Assembly: GCA_007131435.1 (NCBI GenBank)
Contig: SLQM01000188.1
Location: 1-34,045, forward strand
DNA: 34,045 nt
DNA from: Syntrophomonadaceae bacterium
Lineage (GTDB): Bacteria; Bacillota; Dethiobacteria; DTU022
Reading direction: 5' to 3'
Shown: positions 1 to 31,994 of the stretch, one piece after another
Numbering within the stretch: position 1 is the stretch's first letter
Layout: each line of letters opens with the position of its first letter
Translations under genes and position numbers: made by a program
The notes under the pieces: model-generated
What the model was told of the DNA's origin: nothing
Database searches by the model: none
What the model saw: only the letters and a program-made list of their open reading frames with translations

Positions 1-281
1 ATCTCACCGCCAAAAAGCTGTAAGCTCTGCTGGCAGGCTATAATTTCAATGCCCTGCTCTGCAGTCTGCTTCAATACTTCAAAAAGCGTTGGGAATTCGC
101 CAATTTTTACTTTTTCCGCTTCACCTTTGACCAGGTTTTTTAAACCCAGCCCCAGGAAATATACTGTGGCATCCTGTCCCATTGCCTTTGCTGTCTGGGC
201 CAAAATCAATGGTGAATAAAGCCTTTCAGGGGTATCTGTCCCACTTGTCTGCACGTAAAGGATCTTATTTGCTTCTGCCAT
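1..281 (-). CDS. DsrE/DsrF-like family protein (3' end runs off the window)
   Basis: Own translation from ATG at 281 (GGAGG upstream, inside the end of tusA): MAEANKILYVQTSGTDTPERLYSPLILAQTAKAMGQDATVYFLGLG...IEIIACQQSLQLFGGE. Shows the DsrE pattern with the conserved Cys in IACQQS. Not in the ORF track because it is truncated. Confidence 0.8.
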   Translation of the reverse strand, partial: MAEANKILYVQTSGTDTPERLYSPLILAQTAKAMGQDATVYFLGLGLKNLVKGEAEKVKIGEFPTLFEVLKQTAEQGIEIIACQQSLQLFGGE

Positions 282-282
282 C

Positions 283-639
283 TCAAGAATCCTCCTTTCC
301 ACCTTTTTGAACCAGGAAGTGATACTCGTCTCCATCCTGTCTCATGGTAACCAGCTGATGCCCTGCCCTTTTAGCCCAGCGCGGTATGTCTTCTGCTGAA
401 GCCGGATCATCGGCAACCAGTTCCATCAGGTTGCCTTCTTCCAGGGTATCTATTTCTTCCTTGGCCCGCATGACAGGCACCGGGCAATAAAGACCGACAC
501 AATCAACCAGGTGTATTTTCAACTTGTCATCACTTGTGCACCTGTATCTTCCATCTTCAGGATCGGGACAAATAGGTTTGTCACAAAAAGGGCAGCTGCA
601 ACCTTTTGCCTTATCCTGTTCTTGTTTATTCATGTTCAT
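283..639 (-). CDS. tusA: Sulfurtransferase TusA family protein with a Cys-rich N-terminal extension
   Basis: DCVGLYCPVP (CPxP persulfide motif) and ADDPASAEDIPRWAKRAGH; GGGAGG RBS before the ATG. Confidence 0.88.
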   Translation of the reverse strand: MNMNKQEQDKAKGCSCPFCDKPICPDPEDGRYRCTSDDKLKIHLVDCVGLYCPVPVMRAKEEIDTLEEGNLMELVADDPASAEDIPRWAKRAGHQLVTMRQDGDEYHFLVQKGGKEDS

Positions 640-684: not shown

Positions 685-1068
685 TTAGTTTTCTGCTTTC
701 ACCTTTGCCCTGTAATCTTCAATTGCTTTATGCAGGGCATCGGCACCCAGGTTAGAGCAGTGCATTTTATTCCCGGGAAGCCCTTCCAGCTCTTCAGCAA
801 CCTGTTTATTGGTAATTTTCATTGCTTCATCAAGGGTTTTACCCTTGGCCATTTCAGATACCATACTTGAAACGGCTATTGCTGCACCACATCCAAAGGT
901 TAAATACTTAATATCTTCAATCCGGTCATCTTTAACTTTAATTGTGAACTTCATCATATCGCCACAAACGGGGTTTCCTACTTCTCCCGTACCATCGGGG
1001 TTATCGAGCTCTCCAATATTGCGCGGCTTGGTGAAATGCTCCATTACTTTATCGCTATACTCAGGCAT
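685..1068 (-). CDS. iscU: Fe-S cluster scaffold IscU/NifU N-terminal type
   Basis: YSDKVMEHF..PRN, GNPVCGD, FGCGAAIA and KMHCSNL; all three Cys plus the Asp and His are present. Start overlaps the iscS stop. Confidence 0.95.
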   Translation of the reverse strand: MPEYSDKVMEHFTKPRNIGELDNPDGTGEVGNPVCGDMMKFTIKVKDDRIEDIKYLTFGCGAAIAVSSMVSEMAKGKTLDEAMKITNKQVAEELEGLPGNKMHCSNLGADALHKAIEDYRAKVKAEN

Positions 1069-2248
1069 TCTGTTTAGCCTCCTTCATAAACTGGTGGTAA
1101 AGCGGAGACATGCTCCGCAAAATATTGGTAACTTCAGCCAGCTGTTCGGTAATGTATGGAATATCTTCTACGCTGCTTCCCGGCCCCGCGGTAAGCTGCA
1201 GGGAGCCCTGGGCCAGCTCGGGAGGAACACCGATCGCTGATAAAACATGAGATGATTTTAAGGCCTGCGAAGTACAGGATGAGCCGCTTGAAACGCTGAT
1301 GCCGGCCATGTCTAAACGCATCAGCAGGGCTTCTCCTTCAACAAAGCTAACTGATATGTTAAGGTTTCGCGGCACCCTCTTCTCCGGGTGGCCGTTTAAA
1401 TGTAAATATGGTATGGCGCTAAAAAGACTCTCTTTTAGCTTATCCCTGAAAAAAGCAGCTTCTTTTGCACGTTCTTCAAGCTGAACGGCTGCAATGCGCG
1501 CCGCTTCGCCAAGGCCGGCAATGAGGGCAACATTTTCTGTTCCGGCCCGCAGCCCTTTTTCCTGGGTCCCCCCTTCAACCAGGGGTGTTAACCTTACTCC
1601 ACGCTTGACAAATAGCGCCCCTGTACCTTTGGGCCCGTAAAACTGGTCTCCCGCCAGTGAAAGCATATCTATACCGAGCTTTTGAACATCAACAGGAATC
1701 CATCCTACTGCTGCTGCTGCATCGGTGTGAAAAACAACATTACTTTCTTTTGCTACAGCTACCAGTTCTGCGAGGGGTTGTATGGTCCCTATTTCCTGGT
1801 TAGCGGCCTGGATAGTGACCAAAATAGTCTCGCCTGTAATCGCGTCGGCCAGGTCCCGGGGGTGAACCAGCCCGTATTCATCTACCGGAAGCTCTGTTAT
1901 AGAAAACCCTTCCTTTTTCAAGGTTTTAAGCTGGTTAAGAATAGAAAAATGCTCAACCGGAGAAGTGATAATGTGCTTCCCCTTCTTCATATTGGCTTTT
2001 GCAAAACCTTTAACTGCCAGGTTGTTTGCTTCCGAAGCAGATGCAGTAAAAATAATATTTCCTGCATCTGCACCTATTAGCCGTCCTACATTTTCCCGGG
2101 CCTCCTGCAGGGCTTTACGGGGCATTTCCCCTAAACTATGACCACTTGAAGGGTTACCATAATGCTCGGTTAAAAGTGGAAGCATCTTCTCTATAATTGC
2201 TTTTTCAACAGGGGCTGCTGCTGTATAATCAAGGTTTATTTTTTTCAT
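1061..2248 (-). CDS. iscS: Cysteine desulfurase (IscS/NifS) family protein with a degenerate PLP site
   Basis: YGNPSS, EH, YGPKG, RAGTEN, SGSSCTS and LRSMSPLY motifs, but SxHK is replaced by AGDQ. Start placed at ATG 2248 (MKKINLDY) after GAGGG; the ORF track extends to 2266. Confidence 0.9.
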   Translation of the reverse strand: MKKINLDYTAAAPVEKAIIEKMLPLLTEHYGNPSSGHSLGEMPRKALQEARENVGRLIGADAGNIIFTASASEANNLAVKGFAKANMKKGKHIITSPVEHFSILNQLKTLKKEGFSITELPVDEYGLVHPRDLADAITGETILVTIQAANQEIGTIQPLAELVAVAKESNVVFHTDAAAAVGWIPVDVQKLGIDMLSLAGDQFYGPKGTGALFVKRGVRLTPLVEGGTQEKGLRAGTENVALIAGLGEAARIAAVQLEERAKEAAFFRDKLKESLFSAIPYLHLNGHPEKRVPRNLNISVSFVEGEALLMRLDMAGISVSSGSSCTSQALKSSHVLSAIGVPPELAQGSLQLTAGPGSSVEDIPYITEQLAEVTNILRSMSPLYHQFMKEAKQNA

Positions 2249-2306
2249 TTTAAACATCCCTCTCAAAGCTTTCAGCTGAGTCTTGACTAATTCATCAAAT
2301 AATTAT

Positions 2307-2333
2307 ATAATTCCTATAAGAATTATAGGTTAT
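2307..2333. promoter_or_regulatory. Rrf2-family (CymR/IscR-like) operator
   Basis: Perfect inverted repeat CCTATAA-gaa-TTATAGG (2313-2329) overlapping the -10 box; contains ATAATTCCTAT (2307-2317), which resembles the Bacillus CymR motif AT(A/T)ATTCCTAT as I recall it. Confidence 0.65.
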
Positions 2334-2350
2334 TTATAGCGGCGTGTCAA
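2322..2350 (-). promoter_or_regulatory. SigA promoter of the iscS operon
   Basis: Perfect TTGACA (2350-2345), 17-nt spacer, TATAAT (2327-2322) on the minus strand. Confidence 0.85.
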
Positions 2351-2516: not shown

Positions 2517-3014
2517 ATGAAAACAAAGGAAAATCTGATGGCAGCTTTTGCCGGGGAATCACAGGCTAACAGGAAATACCTGGCCTTTTCCAAAAAGGCA
2601 GAAAAAGACGGTTTCAAGAATGTTGCCCGTATTTTTAAGGCTATTGCCGAAGCTGAAACTATTCATGCTTTAAAACACTTTGAAATTGCCGGTAAAGTAA
2701 ATGACACCCTTGAAAACCTGAAAGCTGCAGCTGAAGGTGAACACTATGAATTCTCGGAAATGTATCCTGAATTTATTGAAACAGCCAAACAGGAAGGAGA
2801 TAATAAGGCACTTCAGAGTTTTGAGTACGCCAATGCAGCAGAAAAAGTGCACGGCGGAATATTCAATGATCTAAAAGAAGCGGTTGCCAAAGGTTCTGAC
2901 TCAGAAGACAAAAATGTTTACCTCTGTCCCGTATGCGGGTGGGTAGGCTTTGATCCCGTTCCCGATAAATGCCCGATCTGTAATACGGCAAAAAAAGCTT
3001 TCCAGCAGTTTTAA
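2517..3014 (+). CDS. rbr: Rubrerythrin
   Basis: NLMAAFAGESQA, EAETIH, EGEHYE and EKVH di-iron ligands; C-terminal CPVCG...CPIC rubredoxin-like domain; AAGGAG RBS. Confidence 0.95.
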   Translation: MKTKENLMAAFAGESQANRKYLAFSKKAEKDGFKNVARIFKAIAEAETIHALKHFEIAGKVNDTLENLKAAAEGEHYEFSEMYPEFIETAKQEGDNKALQSFEYANAAEKVHGGIFNDLKEAVAKGSDSEDKNVYLCPVCGWVGFDPVPDKCPICNTAKKAFQQF

Positions 3015-3074: not shown

Positions 3075-6000
3075 CTAATTCCATTCATCAAAGATAAACA
3101 TTTCCTCTTCACTTAGGTTAAAGTAACTTTTTAAGTGGTTTAGAACATGCTCCTGGCGAAGTTCGGCAAAATTGCGCAGAACTTCCACCTGCCTGTGCCA
3201 GCGGTCCATTGACCCTCCCCACCTGTCCAGGTGCCTTGGCATTTCCGGCTCGATATTGGATGCCAGTTCATCAATCTTTTCTATAACCCTTTCTGTCTTG
3301 AAGGTATTATTGAGATGGAAGGCTGAGCGCTCGATAAACCTTTCCCTGAAATCGGAGTTGCGAAGTAACCCGTTAATCAGGTCGGTATTCAGGTTGCGCC
3401 ACGGCCCGGTCCCCCCCGGCAGGGTTGCATAAGCCAGGGTGTTGTTTGCATGATTGCCCTCCCAAAAGCCCCAGTCAAGGTCGAAAGTAATCCAGCGCCA
3501 TTTGCCATCTTCGTTCTGTTCACGCCAGAAACGGATATTAGCCAGGTCGGTCTGGGCAAAGTAGATTTGTGCTATCCAGTAATCTATATAGTTATCAATA
3601 TCCATCATGGCCGCCACGTGATTATAGCTATCCGGGTTTGAAAGGTCATTGCTGCGCACAAAATCAAGCATATCCCTGTAATGATCGTTGGAGCCAGTCC
3701 GTACCCAACCGTTACCCTGCAGCAGGTCTACCCGGTCAGGATCAACCCCATGATTGTAATGAAGATAATGATTGTTTATCCTTTCCCGCAAGTTATAAAT
3801 ACCCCAGTACTGCCCATTGATATAAAGAACTGTCTGACGGTAAGCCTGGTAATCATAATGCTCCAGGTCCAACAGGCTTGTCATAAAAATATCCCTGATC
3901 TTGGAAAACTGCCAGTCCTGGCCAGAAGTGCGCAGGGTTAGGCCTTTATTTGAAAGCGGCTTTTCGGGATAGAAGTCGGGGAAAAAGGGATAGGTAAATT
4001 CGTTATACCCGTAAATGTTGCGGGCAAAAAGGTTAAAAGATTTCTGCGGCTCTGCCCGGCTATACTGGCCGGCAATTCTTAAACCAAGGTCAAAACTGAA
4101 TCCTGCCTCGCCACCCGGTTCAAAAAACTCCATGTGGACGGGAATTTCTATATTTTGCCAAAAATTTGCACCCCGGTAGGGGAAATATGATGCGCCCCCC
4201 CGCCCTTTCATGTAGATGCCCCGAACAGGATCAAAAAAATCATCCGGGTCACCCATAATTGATATAACTGGCAGGTGGTGATCATCGCCGATGAAAAATG
4301 TACGGTTTACCGTCGGACCGGGCAGTTTTCCTTCTTCAAAAACCCTGGCCCTCAAAACAGTGGTCTCTGTTATTTCGATAGGCCCGCTGTAAAGTTTGCC
4401 TTCTTCATAAGAGGGGGTTTGAAGCCTGGTGTCTTCAGTAATAAATATCTGTCCATTATAGCGGGATAAATGAGCAGCTGGCTCCCTACCGTTTAAAGTG
4501 TAACGAATTTCTGCATCCGGTGAATCGGTAAAAAGCTCCACCGTTACTGGGTTGTCAAAAAAACCGCCCTGGGAAGATACCCGGGTAATGGCACCAAAAC
4601 CGCTGAAGACTTCCCCCTCATTCGGTGCGCCCGGAGAAGCTTTCTTAAAGAAAGTGCGGTTCCCACTCCCGCCCGGGCAGTGGCCTACAGATAAATCAGG
4701 CAGCAGTTTGCCGGAATGCAGGCTGTCTAACACCAGGCCGGTTGGATGGGTCAGGGATATGGTTTCACCTGTCGCCTGGATCTGGTAATTAGTGTGCAGG
4801 TAGTCATTTTCAGGATCCCTGCGATCTTTACGGGAAGCAAATACAAGCAGGTAATCACCTGGATTAATTTCGACAGAGGGCAGTACCCAGCGGAACAGAT
4901 CATCCTCATCATCTGAGAGGCCGAAACCTTCAAGATTTACCGGCTCAGTGCCCTGGTTGTGCAGCTCAATCCAATCCGGGTAGTCTCCATCTTCATCGGC
5001 GATTGTGGTCAGGTTCTCAGCCATAACTTCACTAATTATCAGGGTTCCCTCTTCTACTGCAGGATAAGCAGCCAACTCTTCATAGCCCATTGTTTTATTA
5101 ACTTCGCCGGGTGTGGGACGGGGAAAGAACAGCCAGGAATCTGGATCACCGGGATCGCGGCCGTATGAAATATCATCATGCTGAGCTCGTATGGGGATCA
5201 AATCAATAGTTTTTCCATCTGGTGTTTTAAATACCAGTTCATCATCTCGATCATTTAAACCAAAGTTAACATGCAAAAAGGGGTTGTCAGGATCATCAAT
5301 GTTCTTACCCGAGGCAAAAATAATTAGGTATTCCCCGGGCCCGATTGTAACACCGGGAAACCTCCACTTGAAAGGGTTACTTTCTTTATCTGAGAGCCAG
5401 TATCCTTCGAGATTAATATTTGCATCTCCGGAATTATAAAGTTCAATCCACTCATGCAGTTCGCTGTCTTCATCCATTATGGAAGTATAATTGCGTACTA
5501 AAAATTCATTAATATAAACGGGGTGGTCTTGGGCTCCAGGCAGATTAAAAACATCTTCATAAGGCTCTTTTTCGTTCGGTTCTCCCGGAGTGGCATCCAG
5601 GAAATAAGCCCATTCATCACCATAAGGCTGAGGGCGACCGAATGAAATATTTGATGGAATTTTTTCTTCGAAAACGATCTCATCCAGTATACGGCCGTCA
5701 ATATGACCAAACACCACGGCATCACCGCTGCGGTTGATTCTAAAATCGGTATGCAGGTTTTCACGATCAGGGCTTGACCGATTTTTACCGGATGCAAAAA
5801 CAACCAGGTGTTCACCGGGTTCTATGACAATACCTGGGAACATCCACTGCATGGGTTCATCAGGATCATTGGATAGCCAGTAGCCCTCAAGATTGATGGC
5901 CCTGCTCTTCGGGTTATGTATCTCGATCCAATCCGGGTAATCTCCATCTTCGTCCTGCAGCACAACCCTATTGCTGGCCATTATTTCGGTTATCATTAAA

Positions 6001-6116
6001 TCCTTACCGTCTACACTTAAAGCAACCAGCAGTAAGATAAGCACAATAAAAAAAACCAGAAGCCCAAATGTCATCCAACCTCTTTCAGTTTTACGGGGCT
6101 TATTTCTATAATACAT
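3075..6116 (-). CDS. CotH kinase family protein with three lamin-tail domains and an FN3-associated/chitobiase-like domain
   Basis: N-terminal TM segment; three repeats of I(T/N/S)E..D.D....WIE..N......NLEG..LS; IRYTLNGREP; C-terminal CotH motifs (GLRIAGQYSR, NGQYWGIYNLRERIN, WRWITFDLDWG). Confidence 0.85.
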   Translation of the reverse strand: MYYRNKPRKTERGWMTFGLLVFFIVLILLLVALSVDGKDLMITEIMASNRVVLQDEDGDYPDWIEIHNPKSRAINLEGYWLSNDPDEPMQWMFPGIVIEPGEHLVVFASGKNRSSPDRENLHTDFRINRSGDAVVFGHIDGRILDEIVFEEKIPSNISFGRPQPYGDEWAYFLDATPGEPNEKEPYEDVFNLPGAQDHPVYINEFLVRNYTSIMDEDSELHEWIELYNSGDANINLEGYWLSDKESNPFKWRFPGVTIGPGEYLIIFASGKNIDDPDNPFLHVNFGLNDRDDELVFKTPDGKTIDLIPIRAQHDDISYGRDPGDPDSWLFFPRPTPGEVNKTMGYEELAAYPAVEEGTLIISEVMAENLTTIADEDGDYPDWIELHNQGTEPVNLEGFGLSDDEDDLFRWVLPSVEINPGDYLLVFASRKDRRDPENDYLHTNYQIQATGETISLTHPTGLVLDSLHSGKLLPDLSVGHCPGGSGNRTFFKKASPGAPNEGEVFSGFGAITRVSSQGGFFDNPVTVELFTDSPDAEIRYTLNGREPAAHLSRYNGQIFITEDTRLQTPSYEEGKLYSGPIEITETTVLRARVFEEGKLPGPTVNRTFFIGDDHHLPVISIMGDPDDFFDPVRGIYMKGRGGASYFPYRGANFWQNIEIPVHMEFFEPGGEAGFSFDLGLRIAGQYSRAEPQKSFNLFARNIYGYNEFTYPFFPDFYPEKPLSNKGLTLRTSGQDWQFSKIRDIFMTSLLDLEHYDYQAYRQTVLYINGQYWGIYNLRERINNHYLHYNHGVDPDRVDLLQGNGWVRTGSNDHYRDMLDFVRSNDLSNPDSYNHVAAMMDIDNYIDYWIAQIYFAQTDLANIRFWREQNEDGKWRWITFDLDWGFWEGNHANNTLAYATLPGGTGPWRNLNTDLINGLLRNSDFRERFIERSAFHLNNTFKTERVIEKIDELASNIEPEMPRHLDRWGGSMDRWHRQVEVLRNFAELRQEHVLNHLKSYFNLSEEEMFIFDEWN

Positions 6117-18284: not shown

Positions 18285-18668
18285 ATGACCGACTGCGTAT
18301 TTTGCAACAGGGAAACACTGGATGTTGTAGCTGAAAATGACCTGGCCCTGGCTTTTTACGATGACTGCCCGGCCAGCAAGGGGCACCTGCTGGTAATCCC
18401 TAAACGCCACGTGGAAACCTATTTTGATGCCTCTGCCGATGAGCATAATGCTATCAGGGAACTCATTTTTCAGCTAAAAGCTTTTCTTGATCAAAAATAT
18501 AACCCCGATGCTTACAACATCGGGGCCAACATCGGCCATTTCGCAGGCCAAACAGTTTTTCATTTCCACATGCATATCATTCCACGCTACGAGGGAGATG
18601 TTAAAGACCCGCGCGGCGGGGTTAGAAAAGTTATTCCCACCCGCAGCTGCCATCGACATCGCAGGTAA
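18285..18668 (+). CDS. HIT family nucleotide hydrolase
   Basis: [15 protein letters not shown] and [15 protein letters not shown] (histidine triad). Confidence 0.93.
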
Positions 18669-20523
18669 ATTTTTTCCCTGCCTCTGAAACAGAAAAATCA
18701 AGGGCAGAGAGAAGATAGGCAAACCCGGTAGGATAGCGATCTACCCTGTCAAGCTGGGCAATAATCAGGCTAATTCCTTTTTCCTCCAGCTTGCTGTCCT
18801 GGAACATTCTACCTAGCTGCAGCAAGTTCATAGCCGCTACTGAAACTCCTGATGGAGTAGCGCCATCATAGGCCTCCGCTTTTTCGGCAAAATCACTTTC
18901 GCCTTCACTATGGGCAGCATAATTTAGAAAACCATCGCTCCTGTCAAAAAGCTCCAGCATTTTCCTGCCGAGCGTTTCAGCCTGATCAAGATACTCTTTT
19001 TCTCCACCGGCCTTGTATATTTCAAGCATCCCCCAGGCCAGGTTTGCATAGTCATCAAGGAAAGCATCAATAGCTGCTTCGCCTTCACGGTAACGCCGCA
19101 CAAGACGCCCGTCGGGCAGGGCCATCCTGTCCAAAATGAAGGAGGCAGCTTTTTTAGCCGTTTCAAGGTATTCCTTATCTTCAAGCACAACGGAGCCCCT
19201 GGCCAGGGCGGCAATTAACATTCCATTCCAGGAAGTTATAATTTTATCATCAAGAAACGGTCTTTCGCGCTTGCCGCGGGCAGATAACAGCTTCTCCCGG
19301 GCACCTTCAAGGATGGCATCTAACTCTTCAACTGTCATACCTTTTGCTTTTGCGAACTCATGATCATCATACTGCCTGTGCATAATACTTCTATTCCCCT
19401 CGAAATTGCCGTTCCCGGTAACCCCGAAATATTCATTAACCAGGATTGCCTTTTCACTGCCCAGAATACGAACTATTTCTTCAGGGCGCCAGACATAAAA
19501 AGTCCCCTCTTCACCTTCACTGTCTGCATCTTCTGCAGCATAGTAAGCCCCTTCTTCAGATTGCATATCCCTGTTAAGGTAAGAAAATATTTTTCGGGCA
19601 AACAGGGCCATTTCCGGTTCGCCGGATGCCCTGAAAGCTTCAAGCGCTGCTAAGGCTATAAGAGACTGGTCGTAGAGCATTTTTTCAAAGTGTGGGACCA
19701 GCCATTTTTCATCTACCGAATACCTGTGCAGGCCAAACCCTAACTGGTCAAAAATTCCTCCGCGGTGAATTTTTCGCAGGGTTTCTAAAACCATATCTCT
19801 TGCCTCTTGTTTTCCTGACCTCTTCCAGTAGCGCAGTAAAAATAGCAATTGATGAGGCGCTGGAAACTTGGGGGCACTACCAAAACCCCCGTAATCACTA
19901 TCATAGCTTTTCTTAAAGCTTTGATAGGCTCTATCTAAAAGATCGGCAGCCGGCAGTTCTTCTAAACTGCTTACTTTTTTTACCTGCCCACCATCATCGG
20001 CTGACATTTTTCGCAGGGCATCTACCAGTTCATCTGCTGCCTTAACCACCCTGTCACGATCTTCTTCCCAAAATTCTTTTAAACGGGGCAGTATCTCCAT
20101 TAACCCGTTTATTCCGTACCTGGAAGTTTTGGGGAAAAAAGTTCCAGCATAAAATGGTTTCTTTTCTGGGGTCAGAAATACAGTTAAAGGCCAGCCTCCC
20201 TGCCCGGTAAGCGCCTGGCATGCCGCCATGTACTTTTGATCAATATCCGGCCTTTCTTCACGGTCAACTTTTACCGGGACAAAATACTTGTTTATCAAAC
20301 CTGCTACTTCGACATCTTCAAATGAATCCTTCTCCATCACATGACACCAGTGACAGGTTGAATATCCTACACTGAGGAAAACGGGCTTATTTTCTTTCTT
20401 TGCTTTTACAAAAGCCTCTTCACCCCAGGGATACCAGTCAACGGGATTGTAAGCATGCTGAAGCAGGTATGGTGATCTTTCATTTATCAAGCGGTTTGCT
20501 TTTTTACTATTACTGCTATTCAT
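18631..20523 (-). CDS. Thioredoxin-domain protein YyaL/SPATA20 (DUF255)
   Basis: [51 protein letters not shown] and [10 protein letters not shown] motifs. Confidence 0.92.
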
Positions 20524-20796: not shown

Positions 20797-22995
20797 TTGT
20801 ATCGCTTAACGAGGAACCTTTACATGCTTTCTTTTATAACAATCATTATCCTCTTCAGCGGATGGTATTATCAGCATTATTCAACTAACAGAAGCATGCA
20901 TGAAAATGCCAGGAACATGGCAGAACTATCAGCCAAATCTATCAGCGATGACATTAGTGGCTACCTGACTGTTCAAGCAAGGTTAATAGAAGCTGCTGCA
21001 ATATTTATTTCACTTAACCAGTGGGATGATGATCAGATTTTTGCATACCTGAATTCACTTTTAGAAACAAGTGACCATTTTGTTTCAATTTATTTTGGGA
21101 CTACCGATAACAGCATGATTAATGCCAATGGCTGGAAAACTCCGGCAGGGTTTGACTTAAGCCAAAGGTCTTGGTACATAAAAGCACAAGAGCATGGACA
21201 GACCGTTTTTACTGAAGCATTCATTAATGCCAGTCTTGATAAAATTATTGTCACTGTAGCCTGCCCCGTATACTTCCAGCAGGATCAATTCGCCGGAGTG
21301 GTGGGTGGAGATATTTATATGTCCACTATTACTGAAATTGTCACAGAACGCAACGGCAGCAATGCCGGGTTTGCATTTCTTGTTGATATCAGGGGTAATA
21401 TATTAGCCCACCCTGAGATTGAATATAGCCCCGGTACTGATTTTATAAAAATTTCAGACTACTACAGCGAATATGCTGCACTTAATGGGAACAGCAAGCT
21501 GGATGAGTACACCATCCTGGTAGATGAACAGGAAGGTTATCTCTCCTACTTGCCTGTCAGTGATACTGACTGGTATCTTGCTTCATTTATGCCTTACAGT
21601 GATTTAGCTCCTGCAGTTGATCAAATGACTGTTAAAGCAGTAATGGCCGGCATTGCTATTGTGCTGGTCTTCATGCTTTTTGTTCTTTATTCGCACTTAT
21701 ATGTTTACAGGCCTTTGCTAATTTTTGAAAATAACTTAAAAAAAATAAATGTGGAAGCAGATCCCTCTTACAGGCTCCCTGTCAATAAAAACAGTGAACT
21801 ATCAACCCTTGGAAATTCTATCAATAATGTGCTACAAAAGGTACAAAGCTACCTTACCACCCTGGAGGAAAAAGAAAAATCGCTAAAAAAAGCCAACAGG
21901 GAGTTAAAAACATTAATTGAACAGTTAAGTACTGCCGAAGAAGCTCTTGACTACAGCGAAGAAAGACTATACTACCTCAGTTACCATGACCAGCTGACAG
22001 GCCTCTACAATCGCTTCTTTTTTGAAGCAAAACTGAGGTATCTCAGCCAGAAGCCAGAATACCCAGTAACAATTATATCCGCTGATATTGATGGCTTAAA
22101 GCTGATTAATGATACTATCGGTCAGAGCGCAGGAAACAGCCTGCTCAAAGCATGTGCAAATCTTATCAGCGATGCGCTTGACGGTGAGGGAATACTGGCC
22201 CGGGTAGGAGGAGACGAGTTTTCAGTAATTCTACCGCTTGTCAACAAGGAAGAGGGCGAAAGAGTGGCCCGCCAGATTCGCTACCAGCTTTATCTTTACA
22301 ACCAGGAACATGTTAACTTACCTCTCAGCCTTTCTCTTGGCGTTGCCACGGCAGAAAACAGCAGCACTTCCTTGAAACTTCTTTTCAAACTGGCTGATGA
22401 TCAAATGTTCAAGAACAAGCTGCATCGTAGTAAAAGCGCCCGCAATGGTATTGTTCAAAGCTTGATTAGAACTCTGGCTGAAAGAGATTTTTTCACTGAA
22501 GGCCATGCTGTCAGACTTGAAAAGTTATGCCTGAAGGTTGGTGAAAAAATGGGGTTATCATCACGACAACTTTCCGACCTGGCACTGCTGGCCCAGGTAC
22601 ATGACCTGGGAAAGGTGGGAATACCGGATAAAATTCTCTTTAAATCAGGACCTTTAAGTGAAGAAGAGTGGCAGCTTATGAAGGAACACTCTGAAAAAGG
22701 ATACCGCATTGCATCTTCGTCCACCGATATGCAGGATGTTGCTGAGCTAATTTTGAAGCACCACGAAAACTGGGATGGCAGTGGCTATCCTTTAGGGCTT
22801 AAAGGTGAGGTAATACCTGTTGAATGCCGTATTTTTGCAGTTATAGATGCCTATGATGCCATGACAAATGAACGACCATATAAAAAATCTTTAAGTCATG
22901 AGGAAGCTATTCAAGAACTGGAAGCTTGCGCTGGAAACCAGTTTGATCCCAATATTGTGAAGGTATTTGTTCAACTTTTGACTAATAGACATTAA
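20797..22995 (+). CDS. Membrane sensor: dCache - HAMP-like - GGDEF - HD-GYP cyclic-dinucleotide signalling protein
   Basis: Two TM segments flanking a Cache domain (RSWYIKA, TEAFIN); DQLTGLYNR...RVGGDEF; HDLGK...HHENWDGSGYP. Confidence 0.9.
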   Translation: MYRLTRNLYMLSFITIIILFSGWYYQHYSTNRSMHENARNMAELSAKSISDDISGYLTVQARLIEAAAIFISLNQWDDDQIFAYLNSLLETSDHFVSIYFGTTDNSMINANGWKTPAGFDLSQRSWYIKAQEHGQTVFTEAFINASLDKIIVTVACPVYFQQDQFAGVVGGDIYMSTITEIVTERNGSNAGFAFLVDIRGNILAHPEIEYSPGTDFIKISDYYSEYAALNGNSKLDEYTILVDEQEGYLSYLPVSDTDWYLASFMPYSDLAPAVDQMTVKAVMAGIAIVLVFMLFVLYSHLYVYRPLLIFENNLKKINVEADPSYRLPVNKNSELSTLGNSINNVLQKVQSYLTTLEEKEKSLKKANRELKTLIEQLSTAEEALDYSEERLYYLSYHDQLTGLYNRFFFEAKLRYLSQKPEYPVTIISADIDGLKLINDTIGQSAGNSLLKACANLISDALDGEGILARVGGDEFSVILPLVNKEEGERVARQIRYQLYLYNQEHVNLPLSLSLGVATAENSSTSLKLLFKLADDQMFKNKLHRSKSARNGIVQSLIRTLAERDFFTEGHAVRLEKLCLKVGEKMGLSSRQLSDLALLAQVHDLGKVGIPDKILFKSGPLSEEEWQLMKEHSEKGYRIASSSTDMQDVAELILKHHENWDGSGYPLGLKGEVIPVECRIFAVIDAYDAMTNERPYKKSLSHEEAIQELEACAGNQFDPNIVKVFVQLLTNRH

Positions 22996-27441: not shown

Positions 27442-30114
27442 TCAGGCTTTTTCGATGCTGATGGCGCAAACCTTTGTCTCCGGCGTTTTGGCTACCGGAT
27501 CGAGGGCCGAGCTGGTCAGTAAGTTGGTCGGACACTCGGCAAAGTGGAAACTTAAAGCAGCTACTCCGGGTTGGCTACGCCTGGTAATCCTGGCCTTTAC
27601 TTCCAGTTCACCGCGTCGTGATTTTACCTTAACCAGGTCGCCGTCTGCAATGCCCATCCTCTCGGCATCAGCCGGGTTGATCTTGATATGTTCGCCACCG
27701 CTCAGCTCATCCAGCCCCTCTGAATAACGGGTCATGGTACTGTGGAACTGGTAGAGGCTGCGCTCGGTGGTCAGGATCAAGGGAAAGTCAAAATCACAGC
27801 AATCTTCAGAAGGCCTGTAGGAAAGTGGCATCAGCTTGCCCTTGCCGGACGGGGTATTGAACTTTTCCGTATGAAGGACCGGGGTGCCCGGGTGATCTTC
27901 TGCCGGGCAGGGCCACTGGATTCCACCATGCTCAAGTCGCTCGTAAGTAATTCCGGCATAGCTGGGGGTAACCGCAGAAATCTCCCTGAAAATATCGGCT
28001 GCGCTGTTGTAGGCAAAACCTTCAGCTCCCATTTCATTGGCGATGGCGCTGATAATCCACCAGTCTGGTTTCGCTTCACCGACCGGTTCAATAACCTTGC
28101 GTACCCGCTGCACGCGGCGCTCGGTATTGACAAAAGTGCCGTTTTTCTCGGCAAAAGAAGCTGCCGGAAGAACAACATCTGCCTTCTGGGCGGTTTCGTT
28201 CAGGAATATATCCTGGACAACGAAGAATTCCAGCTTTTCCATCGCCTCGATGGAATGCGAGGCATTGGCCTCAGTCAGCACCGGGTTTTCGCCAACCAGG
28301 TAAAGGGCTTTGACATCGTTCCTGTAGGCGGCATCGAAAATCTCAGTGTGGGTGAGGCCCGGTTTGGGGTTCAGCTCAATTTTCCAGCTGCCCTCAAATT
28401 TTTGCCTTGCCCCTTCATCTTCTACCTTCTGGTAACCGGTGTAAACGTTGGGCAGCGAACCCATGTCGCAGGCGCCCTGCACGTTGTTCTGTCCGCGCAG
28501 GGGATTAACCCCGCCAGAAATGTTGCCCAGGTTACCGGTAATCAGGGCCAGGTTGCTTAAGGCCAGCACGTTGTCCGTGCCGTGGGAATGCTGGGTAATA
28601 CCCATGCAGTAGAGCAGCGATGCCGGGCTGTTCTGGGCATACATTCTTGCCGCTTCAACTATTTTTTCTTCCGGTACGCCGGTTATATCGCTGACAAAAT
28701 CAAGGCTAAACTCCGAGAGCGATTCTTTAAAGGCCTCAAAGTTTTCAGTGCGCTCCTCTATATATTGCTGGTTGTGCAGCCCTTCCTCGACAATCACGCG
28801 GGCCATGCCCATCAGCAGGGCAACGTCGCTGCCCGGCCTGATCTGGAGGAAAAGATCGGCAAAGCGGACCAGCGGAACTTCCTGCGGATTCGCAACAATC
28901 AGCTTTGCCCCGCGGCGCACCGCTTTTTTAACCTGGTAGCCAATAATCGGGTGCGCCTCGGTAGTGCTTGTGCCGATAGCCATGATGCAGGCTGAATCGG
29001 ATACTTCACCAATCGTGTTGGTCATTGCCCCGCTGCCCAGTGTAGTGGCCAGACCGGCCACGGTGGGAGCGTGTCAGAGACGGGCGCAGTGATCGATATT
29101 GTTGGTGCCCATCACCGCGCGGGTAAATTTCTGCAGCACATAGTTATCTTCCACGGTGCACTTGGCTGAAGCAATAGTTGCGAACTGGTCACCTTTATAC
29201 TGGCCAAGTTTTTCGGAAATCAGTGAAATGGCCTCTTCCCAGCTGGCTTCAACAAGCTCACCGTCCCTGCGGATCAGCGGGGTGGTAAGGCGCTCGGGGG
29301 AATTAACAAAACTGAGGCCATAGCGCCCCTTAACGCAGAGGCTGCCGCCGCTGACCGGGCTGTCCTCCACCGCCGTGGAGCTGACAAGTTTGCCGCCTCT
29401 GGCCCCGACCAGGATGTTGCAGCCGCAGCCGCAGAAGGGGCAGACCGTTTCAACTTCGTAGGTCGGTTCAATCGCCTTTTGAGGAACAAGTGCCCCAACA
29501 GGGCAGCGCGACACACACTCGCCGCAGGTGACACAGGTGGAATCGATAATCGGCTTGTCGCCAAGCACGCTGATCCGCGTTTCAATACCGCGGAAGGCGA
29601 AATCGATACATTCATCGCCCTGGATCTCTTCACAGGTGCGCACGCAAATGCCGCATAAAACACATTTGTTCATATCACGCTGGTAATAGGGGTTTGAATC
29701 ATCAATCGGAAAATCGAGCGCCGGTGCGCGCATGGCGCTAATCCGCTCTTCATCGATCCCGACGTAGCGGGTCAACTCCTGCAGTTTACAGTAGCTATTC
29801 TTGGCGCAGTTCTGGCAGTCGTAATCATGGTGAAGAATGAGCAGTTCCATGTTTACCTTGCGGGTCATATCCAGCTCTTCGCTGGAAGTGGTAACCACCA
29901 TTCCTTCTTCTACCGGGGTCATACAGGATACTGTCGGCCGGCGCCCTTCAATTTCAACCAGGCAAACCCTGCAGATGCCGACCGAGGTCAGGTCTTGATG
30001 ATCGCAGAGGTGGGGAATATAGATGCCGTTCTCCAGGGCTGCCCTCAATATAGAGGTGCCCTTTTCCGCCTTTATCTCCACACCATCTATGGTTAAGGTA
30101 ATTAACTCTGACAT
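27442..30114 (-). CDS. fdhF: Formate dehydrogenase alpha subunit, selenocysteine-containing (890 aa, Sec at codon 347)
   Basis: ORFs 29074..30114 and 27442..29061 are in one frame joined by NNIDHCARL-TGA-HAPTVAGL. N-terminal 2Fe-2S/4Fe-4S domains, CPFCGCGC, LRGQNNVQGACD and molybdopterin-binding motifs. Confidence 0.95.
29045..29061 (-). promoter_or_regulatory. SECIS element of fdhF
   Basis: GTGGCC-GGTCT-GGCCAC hairpin starting 12 nt after the in-frame UGA (29076-29074). Confidence 0.8.
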
Positions 30115-31955
30115 TTACAACCCTCCTCGCATACTTCAACTTCTTCTTCAGTCTTTAAACCCTCCGAGACAACCACTACTGCGCTCACTTTCTTCGGGCA
30201 GGCATCGAAACAGGCTGAGCACTGGGTGCAAAGCTCCTGGTCGATCTCGTGCGGTTGTTTCTTTTCCCCTGTAATTGCATCGACCGGGCAGGCCTTGATG
30301 CAGCGCTGGCAGCCTATACACTTTTCAGCATCAATGTAGTACTGCAGGAGGGGCTTACAGACCAGGGCAGGGCAGCGTTTCTCGTTAACGTGTGCTTCGT
30401 ACTCGTCGCGGAAGTAGCGCAGCGTGGTGAGAACCGGGTTGGGCGCAGTCTGGCCCAGGCCACACATTGAGCCTTTCTTCACCGCCGTGGCCAACTCTTC
30501 GAGCAAAGCAACGTCTTCTGGTTTACCGCGCCCCTCGGTTATATCCTCTAAAATATCGTACATCTGGTTTGTGCCGATCCGGCAGGGGATACACTGCCCG
30601 CAGGATTCTTTCTTGGTGAAACTTAAGAAATAGCGAGCCAGGTCGACCATGCAGGTATCTTCGTCAACCACAACCAGTCCACCGGAACCCATCATCGCCC
30701 CGGCAGCGGTCAGGGAATCGAAGTCAATCGGCAGATCGAGGTGTTCTTCTGGTATACAGCCACCCGAAGGTCCGCCGATCTGGGCTGCCTTGAATTTCTT
30801 GCCAAACCTGATTCCGCCGCCGATATCGAAAACGACCTCGCGGATGGTGATACCCATGGGCACTTCCACCAGGCCGGTATTGTTAACCTTGCCGGTCAGG
30901 GCAAAAACCTTGGTCCCCTTACTGCCCTCGGTGCCGACGGAAGCAAACTGCTCGGCGCCGCGGCGCAAAATTAGCGGCACGTTGGCTAATGTTTCCACGT
31001 TGTTGATCACAGTTGGCTTGTTCCAGAGTCCCTCGACTGCAGGAAATGGCGGGCGGTGACGGGGCACGCCTCTTCTACCCTCGATTGAGGCAAGAAGTGC
31101 AGTTTCTTCACCGCAAACGAAAGCACCTGCTCCTTCCTTGATTTTCACCTTGAAGTTAAAACCAAATCCTAAAATATTTTCACCCAGCATGCCGTATTCT
31201 TCAGCCTGCCTGATAGCGGTGCGCAGGCGCTGGATAGCCAGTGGGTACTCGGAACGGACATAGATATAGCCTTCATCAGCATTTATTGCCTGGCCGGTAA
31301 TCATCATCCCTTCCAAAACAGCGTGGGGATCGCCTTCGAGCAGGGAACGGTCCATGAAGGCCCCGGGATCGCCTTCGTCAGCGTTACAGACAACATACTT
31401 TTTAGCTCCCTCACTGCTCAGGCAAAACTGCCACTTCATCCCGGTAGGGAAACCTGCTCCACCGCGGCCACGTAGGCCGGAGCTTTTAATTTCTTCAACC
31501 ACCTCAGACGGCTCCATCTTCAGGGCATTTTTAAGACCCAGGTAACCGCCTCGTATTATATATTCGTCTATATTTTCAGGGTCTATAACCCCGCAGTTGC
31601 GCAGCGCCAGGCGCTGCTGCTTGCTATAAAACATGATCTTATCATGGTTAATAACAATTTCCTCCGATACAGGGTCCTTGTAGAGCAGGCGCTCCACCAT
31701 GTTGCCCTTTATCAGGTATTCTTCAACTAATTCAGGTACATCTTCAGCCTGGACCCCGCAGTAGAATACATCTTCAGGGAAAACGATAAAAAGCGGGCCC
31801 TTTTCACAGAAGCCGTGACAACCGGACATGATGATCCGCACTTTATCCTGCAGGTTGTGTTCCTGCAAAGATTTTATAAGCGCTTCCTGGACCTTGTCAG
31901 CGCCCGAGGAGATACAGCCCGTTCCGGCACAGATCAGAATATGTCTTTCATACAC
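30102..31955 (-). CDS. nuoF: NuoF/HydB-like NAD(H)/FMN-binding subunit
   Basis: N-terminal thioredoxin-like 2Fe-2S domain (CAGTGC...GCHGFCEKGP), GRGGAGFPTG, NADEGDPG, CGEETAL, ESCGQCIPCR and a C-terminal 2x4Fe-4S domain. Start GTG 31955 after AAGGAG; TTG 31976 is the alternative. Confidence 0.92.
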   Translation of the reverse strand: MYERHILICAGTGCISSGADKVQEALIKSLQEHNLQDKVRIIMSGCHGFCEKGPLFIVFPEDVFYCGVQAEDVPELVEEYLIKGNMVERLLYKDPVSEEIVINHDKIMFYSKQQRLALRNCGVIDPENIDEYIIRGGYLGLKNALKMEPSEVVEEIKSSGLRGRGGAGFPTGMKWQFCLSSEGAKKYVVCNADEGDPGAFMDRSLLEGDPHAVLEGMMITGQAINADEGYIYVRSEYPLAIQRLRTAIRQAEEYGMLGENILGFGFNFKVKIKEGAGAFVCGEETALLASIEGRRGVPRHRPPFPAVEGLWNKPTVINNVETLANVPLILRRGAEQFASVGTEGSKGTKVFALTGKVNNTGLVEVPMGITIREVVFDIGGGIRFGKKFKAAQIGGPSGGCIPEEHLDLPIDFDSLTAAGAMMGSGGLVVVDEDTCMVDLARYFLSFTKKESCGQCIPCRIGTNQMYDILEDITEGRGKPEDVALLEELATAVKKGSMCGLGQTAPNPVLTTLRYFRDEYEAHVNEKRCPALVCKPLLQYYIDAEKCIGCQRCIKACPVDAITGEKKQPHEIDQELCTQCSACFDACPKKVSAVVVVSEGLKTEEEVEVCEEGCKCQS

Positions 31956-31994
31956 TTTGGTCTTCTCTCCTTTCAATAAACATGGGAATTATAT

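Follow-up and report, generated by a model that had tools for sequence, protein, structure and literature searches.

The iscS* locus

The window analysed here is contig SLQM01000188.1 of a Syntrophomonadaceae bacterium, taken at its whole length of 34,045 bases: it is contig C84 of a 2.2-Mb genome, 83% complete, indicated below as G000 (further G, L, C and X numbers denote genomes of relatives, loci, contigs and sequencing runs). Near its left end the reverse strand carries a gene, called iscS* here, for a homologue of the cysteine desulfurases IscS and NifS, in which the site for pyridoxal 5'-phosphate (PLP) and substrate is dismantled, while the loop bearing the persulfide cysteine is kept. 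iscS* is the first gene of a conserved, translationally coupled operon, where it is co-encoded and co-regulated with the scaffold IscU and with two cysteine-bearing sulfur carriers. Its product, P0001, is interpreted, with moderate confidence, as a non-catalytic adaptor, which would pass carrier-borne sulfur or sulfide to IscU in an accessory iron-sulfur (Fe-S) assembly line. The features of the locus are reported in Table 1.

Table 1. Genes and sites of the iscS* locus (window coordinates).
Feature	Position	Strand	Description
iscS*	1061..2248	-	ATG start at 2248, stop codon included; 395-aa IscS/NifS homologue without PLP lysine, most cofactor/substrate contacts gone
Asp201-Gln202 codons	1643..1648	-	GAC CAG; in the place of His205-Lys206 of E. 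coli IscS
Cys325 codon	1274..1276	-	corresponds to E. coli Cys328, within the retained mobile loop SGSSCTS
iscU	685..1068	-	127-aa NifU/IscU scaffold; Pfam NifU_N 6.4e-50
tusA	283..639	-	118-aa sulfur carrier; Pfam TusA 2.3e-24 over residues 45-112
TusA N-terminal Cys-rich module	508-639	-	44 residues, CxCPFCDxPxCPxP...C
dsrE-like sulfur carrier	3..272	-	cut by the contig end; likely start at the Met of MAEANKILYVQ; Pfam DsrE 1.1e-11
rubrerythrin	2517..3014	+	divergent from iscS*; Pfam Rubrerythrin 3e-25
Operon promoter, sigma-70-type	2322..2350	-	TTGACA, 17 bases, TATAAT; 12/12 consensus matches
Palindromic operator	2306..2329	.	CCTATAATTCTTATAGGAATTATA; overlaps the -10 box; general form TTCmTA-N7-yATAGG

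The top named database relatives of P0001 come from metagenome-assembled genomes of Bacillota. The protein is matched by Pfam Aminotran_5 (3.3e-69) and has therefore the class-V aminotransferase (fold type I) architecture. An earlier reading of the DNA, made from the sequence only, had described the frame as full length: translation from 2248 to 1061 runs without a stop through all 395 residues.

Loss of the cofactor and substrate site

P0001 was aligned with IscS of E. coli K-12, taken from NC_000913, which serves as reference for residue numbering. Five motif changes named in the sequence-only reading are all found in this alignment, at the places given: ATTP reads AAAP (residues 10-13 of P0001; T12 and T13 both replaced by A), NNE reads NQE (150-152; N155Q), DAxQ reads DAAA (176-179; Q183A), SxHK reads AGDQ (199-202; S203A, H205D, K206Q), and IRFS, with the arginine for the substrate carboxylate, reads LQLT (350-353; R354Q). 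One more change, absent from that reading, affects the phosphate-binding GAT, which is SAS in P0001 (G74S, T76S). Altogether, 7 of 11 cofactor and substrate positions are altered; H104, D180, T243 and C328 are kept. The PLP contacts T76, N155, Q183, S203 and H205 read S, Q, A, A and D, a combination that does not fit a desulfurase, and the place of the Schiff-base lysine (K206) is held by a glutamine: its codon, CAG at 1645-1643, was read directly, with GAC before it.

The retention of SGSSCTS, which includes Cys325, and of the C-terminal LRSMSPLY (377-384), claimed in the same reading, holds as well, so that the mobile loop with the catalytic cysteine is present. The observation of a dismantled pocket next to an intact persulfide loop is thus confirmed. 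In line with it, P0001 scores under the NCBIfam cut-offs for both NifS (458.3 versus 530.75) and IscS (378 versus 548 and 376 versus 643). As judged from its residues, P0001 would be unable to form the internal aldimine, or to bind the substrate carboxylate, as IscS does; because the Schiff-base lysine, further cofactor contacts and the substrate arginine are lost, it is predicted not to take sulfur from cysteine. The database name "cysteine desulfurase", carried by proteins of the iscS* clade, is probably a wrong functional label.

Conservation and selection

The pocket changes were followed in the 120 best matches to P0001 (itself included) from a collection of 5.8 billion proteins, at 61-100% identity. 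Position 206 is Gln, and position 183 Ala, in all 120 sequences; Asp is found at position 205 in 119, Ser at 76 in 116, Ala at 203 in 109 and Pro at 155 in 107. Position 354 is always L, Q or S, and Arg in none. Every one of the 120 sequences retains His104, Asp180 and Cys328, and 115 retain Thr243. The His-Lys pair, which might have persisted in close orthologues had the change been an isolated mutation, is therefore not found among them. Nor does another lysine appear to take over the role of the lost one: no new Lys lies near the pocket of P0001, where the sole neighbouring Lys belongs to YGPKG, common to normal enzymes.

Comparison with the orthologue from a genome of the same genus, G001, gives 0.085 non-synonymous (dN) and 0.925 synonymous (dS) substitutions per site, i.e. 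a dN/dS of 0.091. For the same pair of genomes the ratio is 0.069 for the genuine NifS, 0.035 for IscU, 0.057 for TusA, 0.089 for DsrE and 0.027 for rubrerythrin; the estimates are limited to this pair, silent sites being saturated in the others. iscS* is under strong purifying selection.

A stretch of 3.1 kb around the gene was found in metagenome runs from salt and soda lakes. Contigs of two runs from different studies, X3 (covering 1373-1664) and X4 (1541-1735), show zero differences across the Asp-Gln codons, which lie in their shared span, 1541-1664. A metatranscriptome run, X18, yielded only short contigs, two at 95-99% and two at 90-95% identity, which probably belong to relatives and give no evidence of transcription of the operon itself.

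The probability is negligible that iscS* reflects an error of sequencing or assembly, or that it was inactivated recently and is heading for loss. The changes are fixed in the whole clade, dN/dS is low and independent contigs match the Lys-to-Gln codon, which together argue against both error and decay, as do the full-length frame and the conservation of operon and promoter. The view of a selected pseudo-enzyme, put forward in the sequence-only reading, gains support from these data, and from the presence of a separate, working iscR-nifS-nifU set in the same genome (see below).

Operon partners and the Cys-rich module

The last 8 bases of iscS* are at the same time the first 8 of iscU. iscU is found beside iscS* in all 12 orthologous loci, and the order iscS*-iscU-tusA-dsrE in 11 of them, i.e. 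in all those long enough, since L102 (2.6 kb) ends after iscU. A rubrerythrin gene, always divergent from iscS*, is detected by BLASTP in 10 of the 12 loci, and in neither L102 nor L129.

IscU scores over the NCBIfam NifU_clost cut-off (197.9 versus 187.9) and keeps all cluster ligands, as read from its sequence. In TusA, where the expected domain is present, the CPxP cysteine (GLYCPVP) is conserved in 10 of 10 orthologues; the protein remains under the cut-off of the equivalog for E. coli-type TusA (64.4 versus 78). Complete orthologues of the DsrE-like protein are 124 residues long, with a conserved Cys in (M/I)ACQQS, and one of them (L120:10050-10421) is matched by Pfam DsrE at 1.1e-19. With a score of 49.9 against a cut-off of 210 for the DsrE2 equivalog, it is described here as a DsrE-family protein of unnamed subtype.

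The five N-terminal cysteines of the module preceding the TusA domain are invariant in 10 orthologues, and a Pfam search with the N-terminal part alone gave no match. In genome G029 the module is a separate small open reading frame (ORF) between iscU and tusA (L129:2602-2820). A related Cys-rich tail is found at the C-terminus of IscU in eight distant lysine-less loci among the matches listed (L014, L017, L019, L020, L021, L025, L039, L074; the set is described below); the Pfam double zinc ribbon is recognized in all three tails scanned (L014, L019, L074), reaching the gathering score in L019 only. The C(x)CP(F/Y/N)C(D/G) module occurs, therefore, in three layouts: as IscU tail (e.g. L019:7160-7732), as free ORF and as N-terminus of TusA.

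Promoter and operator

All 9 orthologous upstream regions conserve the promoter, together with the palindrome CCTATAATTCTTATAGGAATTATA, which overlaps its -10 box. The general form TTCmTA-N7-yATAGG has three exact matches in the 2.2-Mb genome, compared to one for a reversed control pattern: one at the iscS* promoter, one about 40 bases upstream of cysK, and one inside the coding region of polynucleotide phosphorylase (PNPase), which is taken as chance. The only intergenic match besides iscS* is thus the one upstream of cysK, a gene passing the cysK equivalog (472 bits versus 351). In G018 and G009 a motif of the same type, placed over TATAAT, precedes cysK, and in G003 it precedes an rrf2-cysK-nifS operon; a variant in G007 is nearer to the iscS* form. 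Sharing of an operator with cysK, and its overlap with the promoter, are features of a CymR-type regulon.

The G003 rrf2-cysK-nifS locus is L157 (G003:C1), at 1043-2433 and downstream. Among candidates for the regulator, its Rrf2 protein ranks first; the nearest copy in the source genome (C61) is only 44% identical.

In B. subtilis, cysK is reported as a CymR target, where cysteine scarcity lifts repression (PMC3828012). Because the iscS* operator is common to cysK, and cysK belongs to the CymR regulon of B. subtilis, an Rrf2-type, CymR-like repressor probably makes the operon respond to cysteine or sulfur status. The analogy with the CymR-CysK system of Bacillota lies in the operator, which the iscS* operon has in common with cysK and, as seen in one relative, with rrf2-cysK.

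Two other candidates were discarded. An operator of the IscR type was rejected, as the iscR-nifS-nifU promoter of the genome bears a different box and was missed by the motif search. Operator matches with 3 mismatches, found in five relatives, were dropped as noise: most of them lie beside unrelated genes, and they are about as many as those of the control pattern.

Relation to known lysine-less IscS proteins

Among proteins of solved structure, the best sequence relatives of P0001 are 406-residue "cysteine desulfurase" entries (9wer and others; E value 1e-122), which keep His-Lys, followed by IscS2 of Archaeoglobus fulgidus (4eb5/4r5f, about 2e-113). The former are seven near-identical chains (9wer, 9wew, 9wep, 9wf8, 9wfb, 9wfe, 9wfy), with few pocket differences, and look like point variants.

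An AlphaFold2 model of P0001, built with 16 clade members as input, has a mean predicted local distance difference test score (pLDDT) of 80.9 and a predicted template modelling score (pTM) of 0.83; the Cys loop (residues 323-334) is of low confidence, as expected of a mobile loop. Its best PDB match by Foldseek is 4hvk, the "unusual L-cysteine desulfurase" of A. fulgidus, at template modelling (TM) scores of 0.86/0.92 and 46% identity; TM scores to IscS, NFS1 and NifS structures range from 0.82 to 0.92.

The A. fulgidus protein is the closest known parallel. In it, Asp199 replaces the lysine; it is reported to carry pyridoxamine 5'-phosphate (PMP) and to have no desulfurase activity (PMC8918507). 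It has been proposed to act as scaffold partner only, giving one Cys ligand to the [2Fe-2S] cluster of IscU (PMC8918507; PMC7585200), and its source of sulfur is called an open question (PMC8918507). Structures are available for IscS2-IscU (PDB 4EB5, 4EB7, 4HVK) and for a D199K variant (4R5F); an (IscS-IscU)2 assembly is a further mark of this type. The alignment with this protein, also suggested in the sequence-only reading, shows the pattern of P0001: Lys, Q183 and R354 are lost and the Cys loop is kept in both. A. fulgidus IscS2 is, like P0001, a type-I desulfurase fold without Schiff-base lysine, with Q183A (DATA), no Arg354, a retained Cys loop and C-terminal MSPL, encoded together with IscU. 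It differs in keeping GAT, NNE and Ser203, with Asn-Asp at 205/206 (H205N/K206D) and Leu at 354 (R354L). The iscS* clade, in contrast, features SAS, N(P/Q)E, Ala203 and Asp-Gln, so that more cofactor contacts are gone; moreover, it is bacterial, stands beside a working nifS-nifU and is about 46-48% identical. On these sequence grounds, iscS* belongs to the A. fulgidus type of lysine-less IscS, with a more thoroughly stripped pocket.

A second parallel is IscS1-IscU1 of Methanosarcina acetivorans (MA0808/MA0807), where IscS1 lacks the catalytic lysine and is suggested by the authors to act as in A. fulgidus (PMC7585200). As in the present case, it is an extra, lysine-less copy in an organism with a working IscS-IscU; it differs in being archaeal and uncharacterised, with inclusion bodies reported (PMC7585200). 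The main text of PMC7585200 mentions no neighbouring sulfur-carrier genes, the terms MA0809, MA0810, SirA and DsrE being absent from it.

The A. fulgidus case raises the possibility that the remnant of the pocket still holds PLP or PMP non-covalently, or some other ligand, serving either a different reaction or a structural or regulatory cofactor. This is considered unlikely. It would explain why the ring-stacking His104, the ring-nitrogen partner Asp180 and Thr243 are so well conserved, and why the replacements Asp205 and Gln206 are nearly invariant themselves; A. fulgidus IscS, furthermore, is reported to bind PMP without the lysine (PMC8918507). The contacts to the phosphate and O3' are, on the other side, lost or reversed in charge (S203A, H205D, Q183A, N155P), the substrate arginine is gone from all 120 sequences and no new lysine is found near the site. 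Even the D199K variant of the A. fulgidus protein reportedly still yields PMP, not PLP (PMC8918507). Because the charge is reversed at 205, and S203, Q183 and N155 are lost, binding of PLP or PMP appears less likely in P0001 than in A. fulgidus IscS. A non-catalytic adaptor remains the preferred reading.

Distribution of the lysine-less family and linkage to sulfur carriers

Lysine-less proteins were looked for beyond the close clade in a distant set of 80 loci among the matches listed, obtained with generic peptide patterns, one genome per species, at 41-54% identity; the close clade is outside this set, to which all counts of distant loci refer. Lys206 is absent from 27 of the 80 loci, being replaced by Q, D, T, R, S, A, P, V or N. 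All 27 also lack Arg354 and keep the Cys, and 26 lack Gln183. According to the record titles, the hosts belong to Chloroflexota, Nitrospirota, Elusimicrobiota, Aminicenantota/Acidobacteriota, Planctomycetota, Thermodesulfobacteriota and Bathyarchaeia. In a library of 1.84 billion proteins, clustered at 50% identity, 21 of the 150 best representatives are lysine-less, and none of the 150 is of the Asp-Gln type. The top match, P0121, is a 550-residue, lysine-bearing NifS-like protein, in which residues about 213-366 are tandemly duplicated, probably an assembly artefact.

A quick IQ-TREE tree of 67 rows places all 39 bacterial lysine-less rows in one clade, with 99% support in the Shimodaira-Hasegawa-like approximate likelihood ratio test (SH-aLRT); within it, the 15 rows of the iscS* Asp-Gln clade (100%) are sister to the remaining 24 rows (96%). 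The A. fulgidus-like Asn-Asp is seen in three Bathyarchaeia rows, which are placed apart, in the unresolved base of the tree. A constraint uniting all lysine-less rows is not rejected by the approximately unbiased test (p-AU 0.278; reduced set of 32 rows, LG+G4, the A. fulgidus sequence itself being outside the tree). The topology suggests one or two origins of the lysine-less state. The Asp-Gln clade is narrow: of 40 close relatives, 13 encode it (11 of the 24 that belong to the same family), as do 2 of 300 further genomes drawn evenly from the phylum.

Neighbouring genes were counted in the two kinds of distant loci; the counts are minima, as some flanks are short. TusA is encoded in the locus for 18 of 27 lysine-less proteins and for none of 53 lysine-bearing ones, DsrE for 5 of 27 versus 0 of 53. 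IscU is common to both (20 of 27 versus 49 of 53). The Bathyarchaeia loci feature TusA in 3 of 3 cases and DsrE in 2 of 3, one of these being closely similar to the Bacillota protein. Rubrerythrin is found in 4 lysine-less loci, versus 0 of 53 lysine-bearing ones; all four belong to one clade, and the idea that the divergent rubrerythrin links the operon to peroxide stress was set aside, as the association recurs in this one other clade only. In an Acidobacteria genome (L019:5731-9256) the lysine-less iscS-iscU pair is flanked by a 72-residue Nfu-like gene, a quinolinate-synthase-like gene and a rubrerythrin, as named from their sequences.

The presence of carriers may also be taken to mean that the cassette moves sulfur for ends other than Fe-S clusters. 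In that case IscU would be a helper or sensor, and the ends might be a thio-cofactor, tRNA thiolation or, in a sulfide-rich habitat, the handling and detoxification of persulfide and polysulfide. Proteins of the TusA and DsrE families are known to serve many sulfur-transfer pathways (PMC11094781; PMC11302665), 4 distant loci have iscS*-tusA but lack IscU, and the stretch occurs, as said, in salt- and soda-lake metagenomes. This alternative is nonetheless rather improbable, given that IscU is adjacent and translationally coupled, is present in every orthologous locus and in most distant lysine-less ones, keeps all cluster ligands and passes NifU_clost; one distant locus, in addition, clusters genes for the Fe-S enzyme NadA and an Nfu-like protein (names from sequence reading). 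Delivery to IscU for Fe-S assembly is the destination preferred here.

Housekeeping Fe-S genes in the same genome

Contig C198 of the source genome carries iscR (of the Rrf2 type)-nifS-nifU, followed by hrcA-grpE-dnaK, the last three being named from their sequences. The NifS encoded there keeps every catalytic residue (SAHK, DAVQ, NNE, IRFS and the Cys), and its score, 563.6 bits, is over the NCBIfam NifS cut-off of 530.75. A second HK-bearing IscS paralogue is found on contig C172. In all, the genome contains three NifU_N genes, five TusA genes and one SufB-like gene. At least one further IscS-like match is present in 13 of 13 relatives with an iscS* orthologue. Since a complete iscR-nifS-nifU set and further paralogues are encoded elsewhere, the iscS* operon is an accessory system, not the sole Fe-S machinery of the organism.

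A class-V aminotransferase gene on a further contig (G000:C215:63-1166) adjoins a TusA gene (1556-1753); its product has GHK, a C-terminal Cys and 28% identity to E. coli IscS. The two may form a second, catalytic desulfurase-TusA pair.

Two bacterial systems help to place the operon. E. coli IscS, solved with TusA and IscU (PDB 3LVJ, 3LVL), shares its fold with P0001 (TM about 0.89) and acts among the same players, i.e. a Cys-loop protein, IscU and TusA. It makes persulfide from cysteine and donates it to TusA or IscU; P0001, in contrast, is predicted to be incapable of making it, and the flow would run from the carriers to IscS* or IscU. Moreover, E. coli tusA lies outside the isc operon (NC_000913: iscRSUA-hscBA-fdx-iscX). 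The minimal ISC system of anaerobes (MIS; MisS-MisU) is similarly a two-gene IscS/IscU core without chaperones, A-type carrier or ferredoxin (PMC13066941), none of which is found near iscS*. MisS, in contrast, is described as a cysteine desulfurase (PMC13066941), while iscS* is devoid of the residues needed, and the iscS* operon adds TusA, a DsrE-like protein and the Cys-rich module.

A dead paralogue beside a live one is also a common layout for decoys. Under this hypothesis iscS* would be a negative regulator, tying up IscU or TusA and holding back the assembly of Fe-S clusters, or the flow of sulfur, instead of feeding it. Competition of IscU and TusA for sites on IscS, which steers the flow of sulfur, is reported for E. 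coli (PMC11302665). A decoy, however, would need neither an invariant Cys loop nor carriers and an IscU paralogue of its own within a co-regulated operon, and the hypothesis is held to be very unlikely.

Other features of the window

An Rfam scan of the window detected no RNA family. At 27442-30114 (reverse strand) a formate-dehydrogenase-like molybdopterin oxidoreductase is encoded as two ORFs, separated by an in-frame TGA (29074-29076): read as selenocysteine, it gives ...HCARLUHAPT..., the usual selenocysteine site of formate-dehydrogenase-like enzymes. A gene for a NuoF-like flavoprotein follows (30102-31976), and the G+C content in this region rises up to 0.52-0.55. Beyond the rubrerythrin gene, 3075-6116 (reverse strand) encodes a protein of 1013 residues, in which three lamin-tail domains are combined with a chitobiase C-terminal/Fn3-associated segment and with a CotH kinase domain; part of the orthologous gene likewise adjoins rubrerythrin in G001. 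Two other genes look ordinary: one for a dCache-GGDEF-HD-GYP signalling protein (20797-22995, forward strand) and one for a 630-residue DUF255/thioredoxin-like protein (18631-20523, reverse strand).

Proposed role of the iscS* operon

The fold and dimer-type architecture are preserved in the iscS* protein, as are the C-terminal LRxMSPLY and the mobile loop with Cys325. As an adaptor, the protein would bind the co-translated IscU, docking as A. fulgidus IscS does, and its Cys325 loop would accept a persulfide and pass it on, or else ligate the nascent cluster. Sulfur would come not from cysteine, but from the DsrE-like and TusA carriers, or directly from sulfide, and the Cys-rich module would contribute a metal or redox site. 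The operon would act as a second, accessory Fe-S assembly line beside iscR-nifS-nifU, probably switched by cysteine or sulfur status through the Rrf2-type, CymR-like repressor.

Some of the data weigh against this proposal. The remnant of the pocket is conserved, with H100, D176, A177, A179 and Q202 (P0001 numbering) invariant in 120 of 120 sequences and D201 being Asp in 119, and a bound ligand, or another activity, may reside in the former site. In 9 of the 27 distant lysine-less loci neither TusA nor DsrE is seen (7 of these 9 bear the IscU zinc-ribbon tail), and 7 of the 27 have no IscU in the locus, including the four in which tusA directly follows iscS*: partnership with IscU may not be universal in the lysine-less family. 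Because the lysine-less state would have arisen once or twice, the linkage to TusA is to be seen as a persistent trait of a clade, with variable gene order, rather than as an association evolved repeatedly. As for regulation, none of the five Rrf2 genes of the source genome reaches the equivalog cut-off for CymR (best score 123 versus 195 bits) or IscR, a further difference from the CymR-CysK system.

A more specific scenario is offered tentatively, as a possibility well short of even odds: the operon would be a cysteine-independent Fe-S line, turned on when cysteine is scarce. The CymR-like repressor would then free both cysK and the operon; the DsrE-like protein and TusA would load sulfane sulfur, or persulfide derived from sulfide, which are plentiful in soda-lake sediments; the dead IscS would dock and deliver to IscU; and the Cys-rich module, fused to TusA in the iscS* clade and to IscU in other phyla, would provide the metal site, or the electrons, for which the classical ISC system relies on ferredoxin.

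Desulfurase-dead IscS proteins are, as a kind, already known from A. fulgidus and from M. acetivorans IscS1. To these the window adds a bacterial clade with the most stripped pocket, its coexistence with a complete housekeeping set, a Cys-rich module moving between TusA and IscU, and an operator common to cysK. In the literature searched, with subscription papers and supplements beyond reach, no description of a lysine-less IscS-TusA-DsrE cassette, or of its regulation, was found.

The question posed by A. fulgidus, namely where a desulfurase-dead IscS obtains its sulfur, is sharpened by iscS*, whose pocket is stripped further and which evolves almost as slowly as a real enzyme, always encoded with two sulfur carriers wherever the orthologous locus is long enough. 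The coexisting, normal nifS-nifU means that its role can be studied without lethality, and the operator shared with cysK points to a concrete, testable physiological trigger. If the proposed relay is true, it would represent a second, carrier-fed entry of sulfur into the Fe-S biogenesis of anaerobes, and would bear on systems predating cysteine desulfurases.

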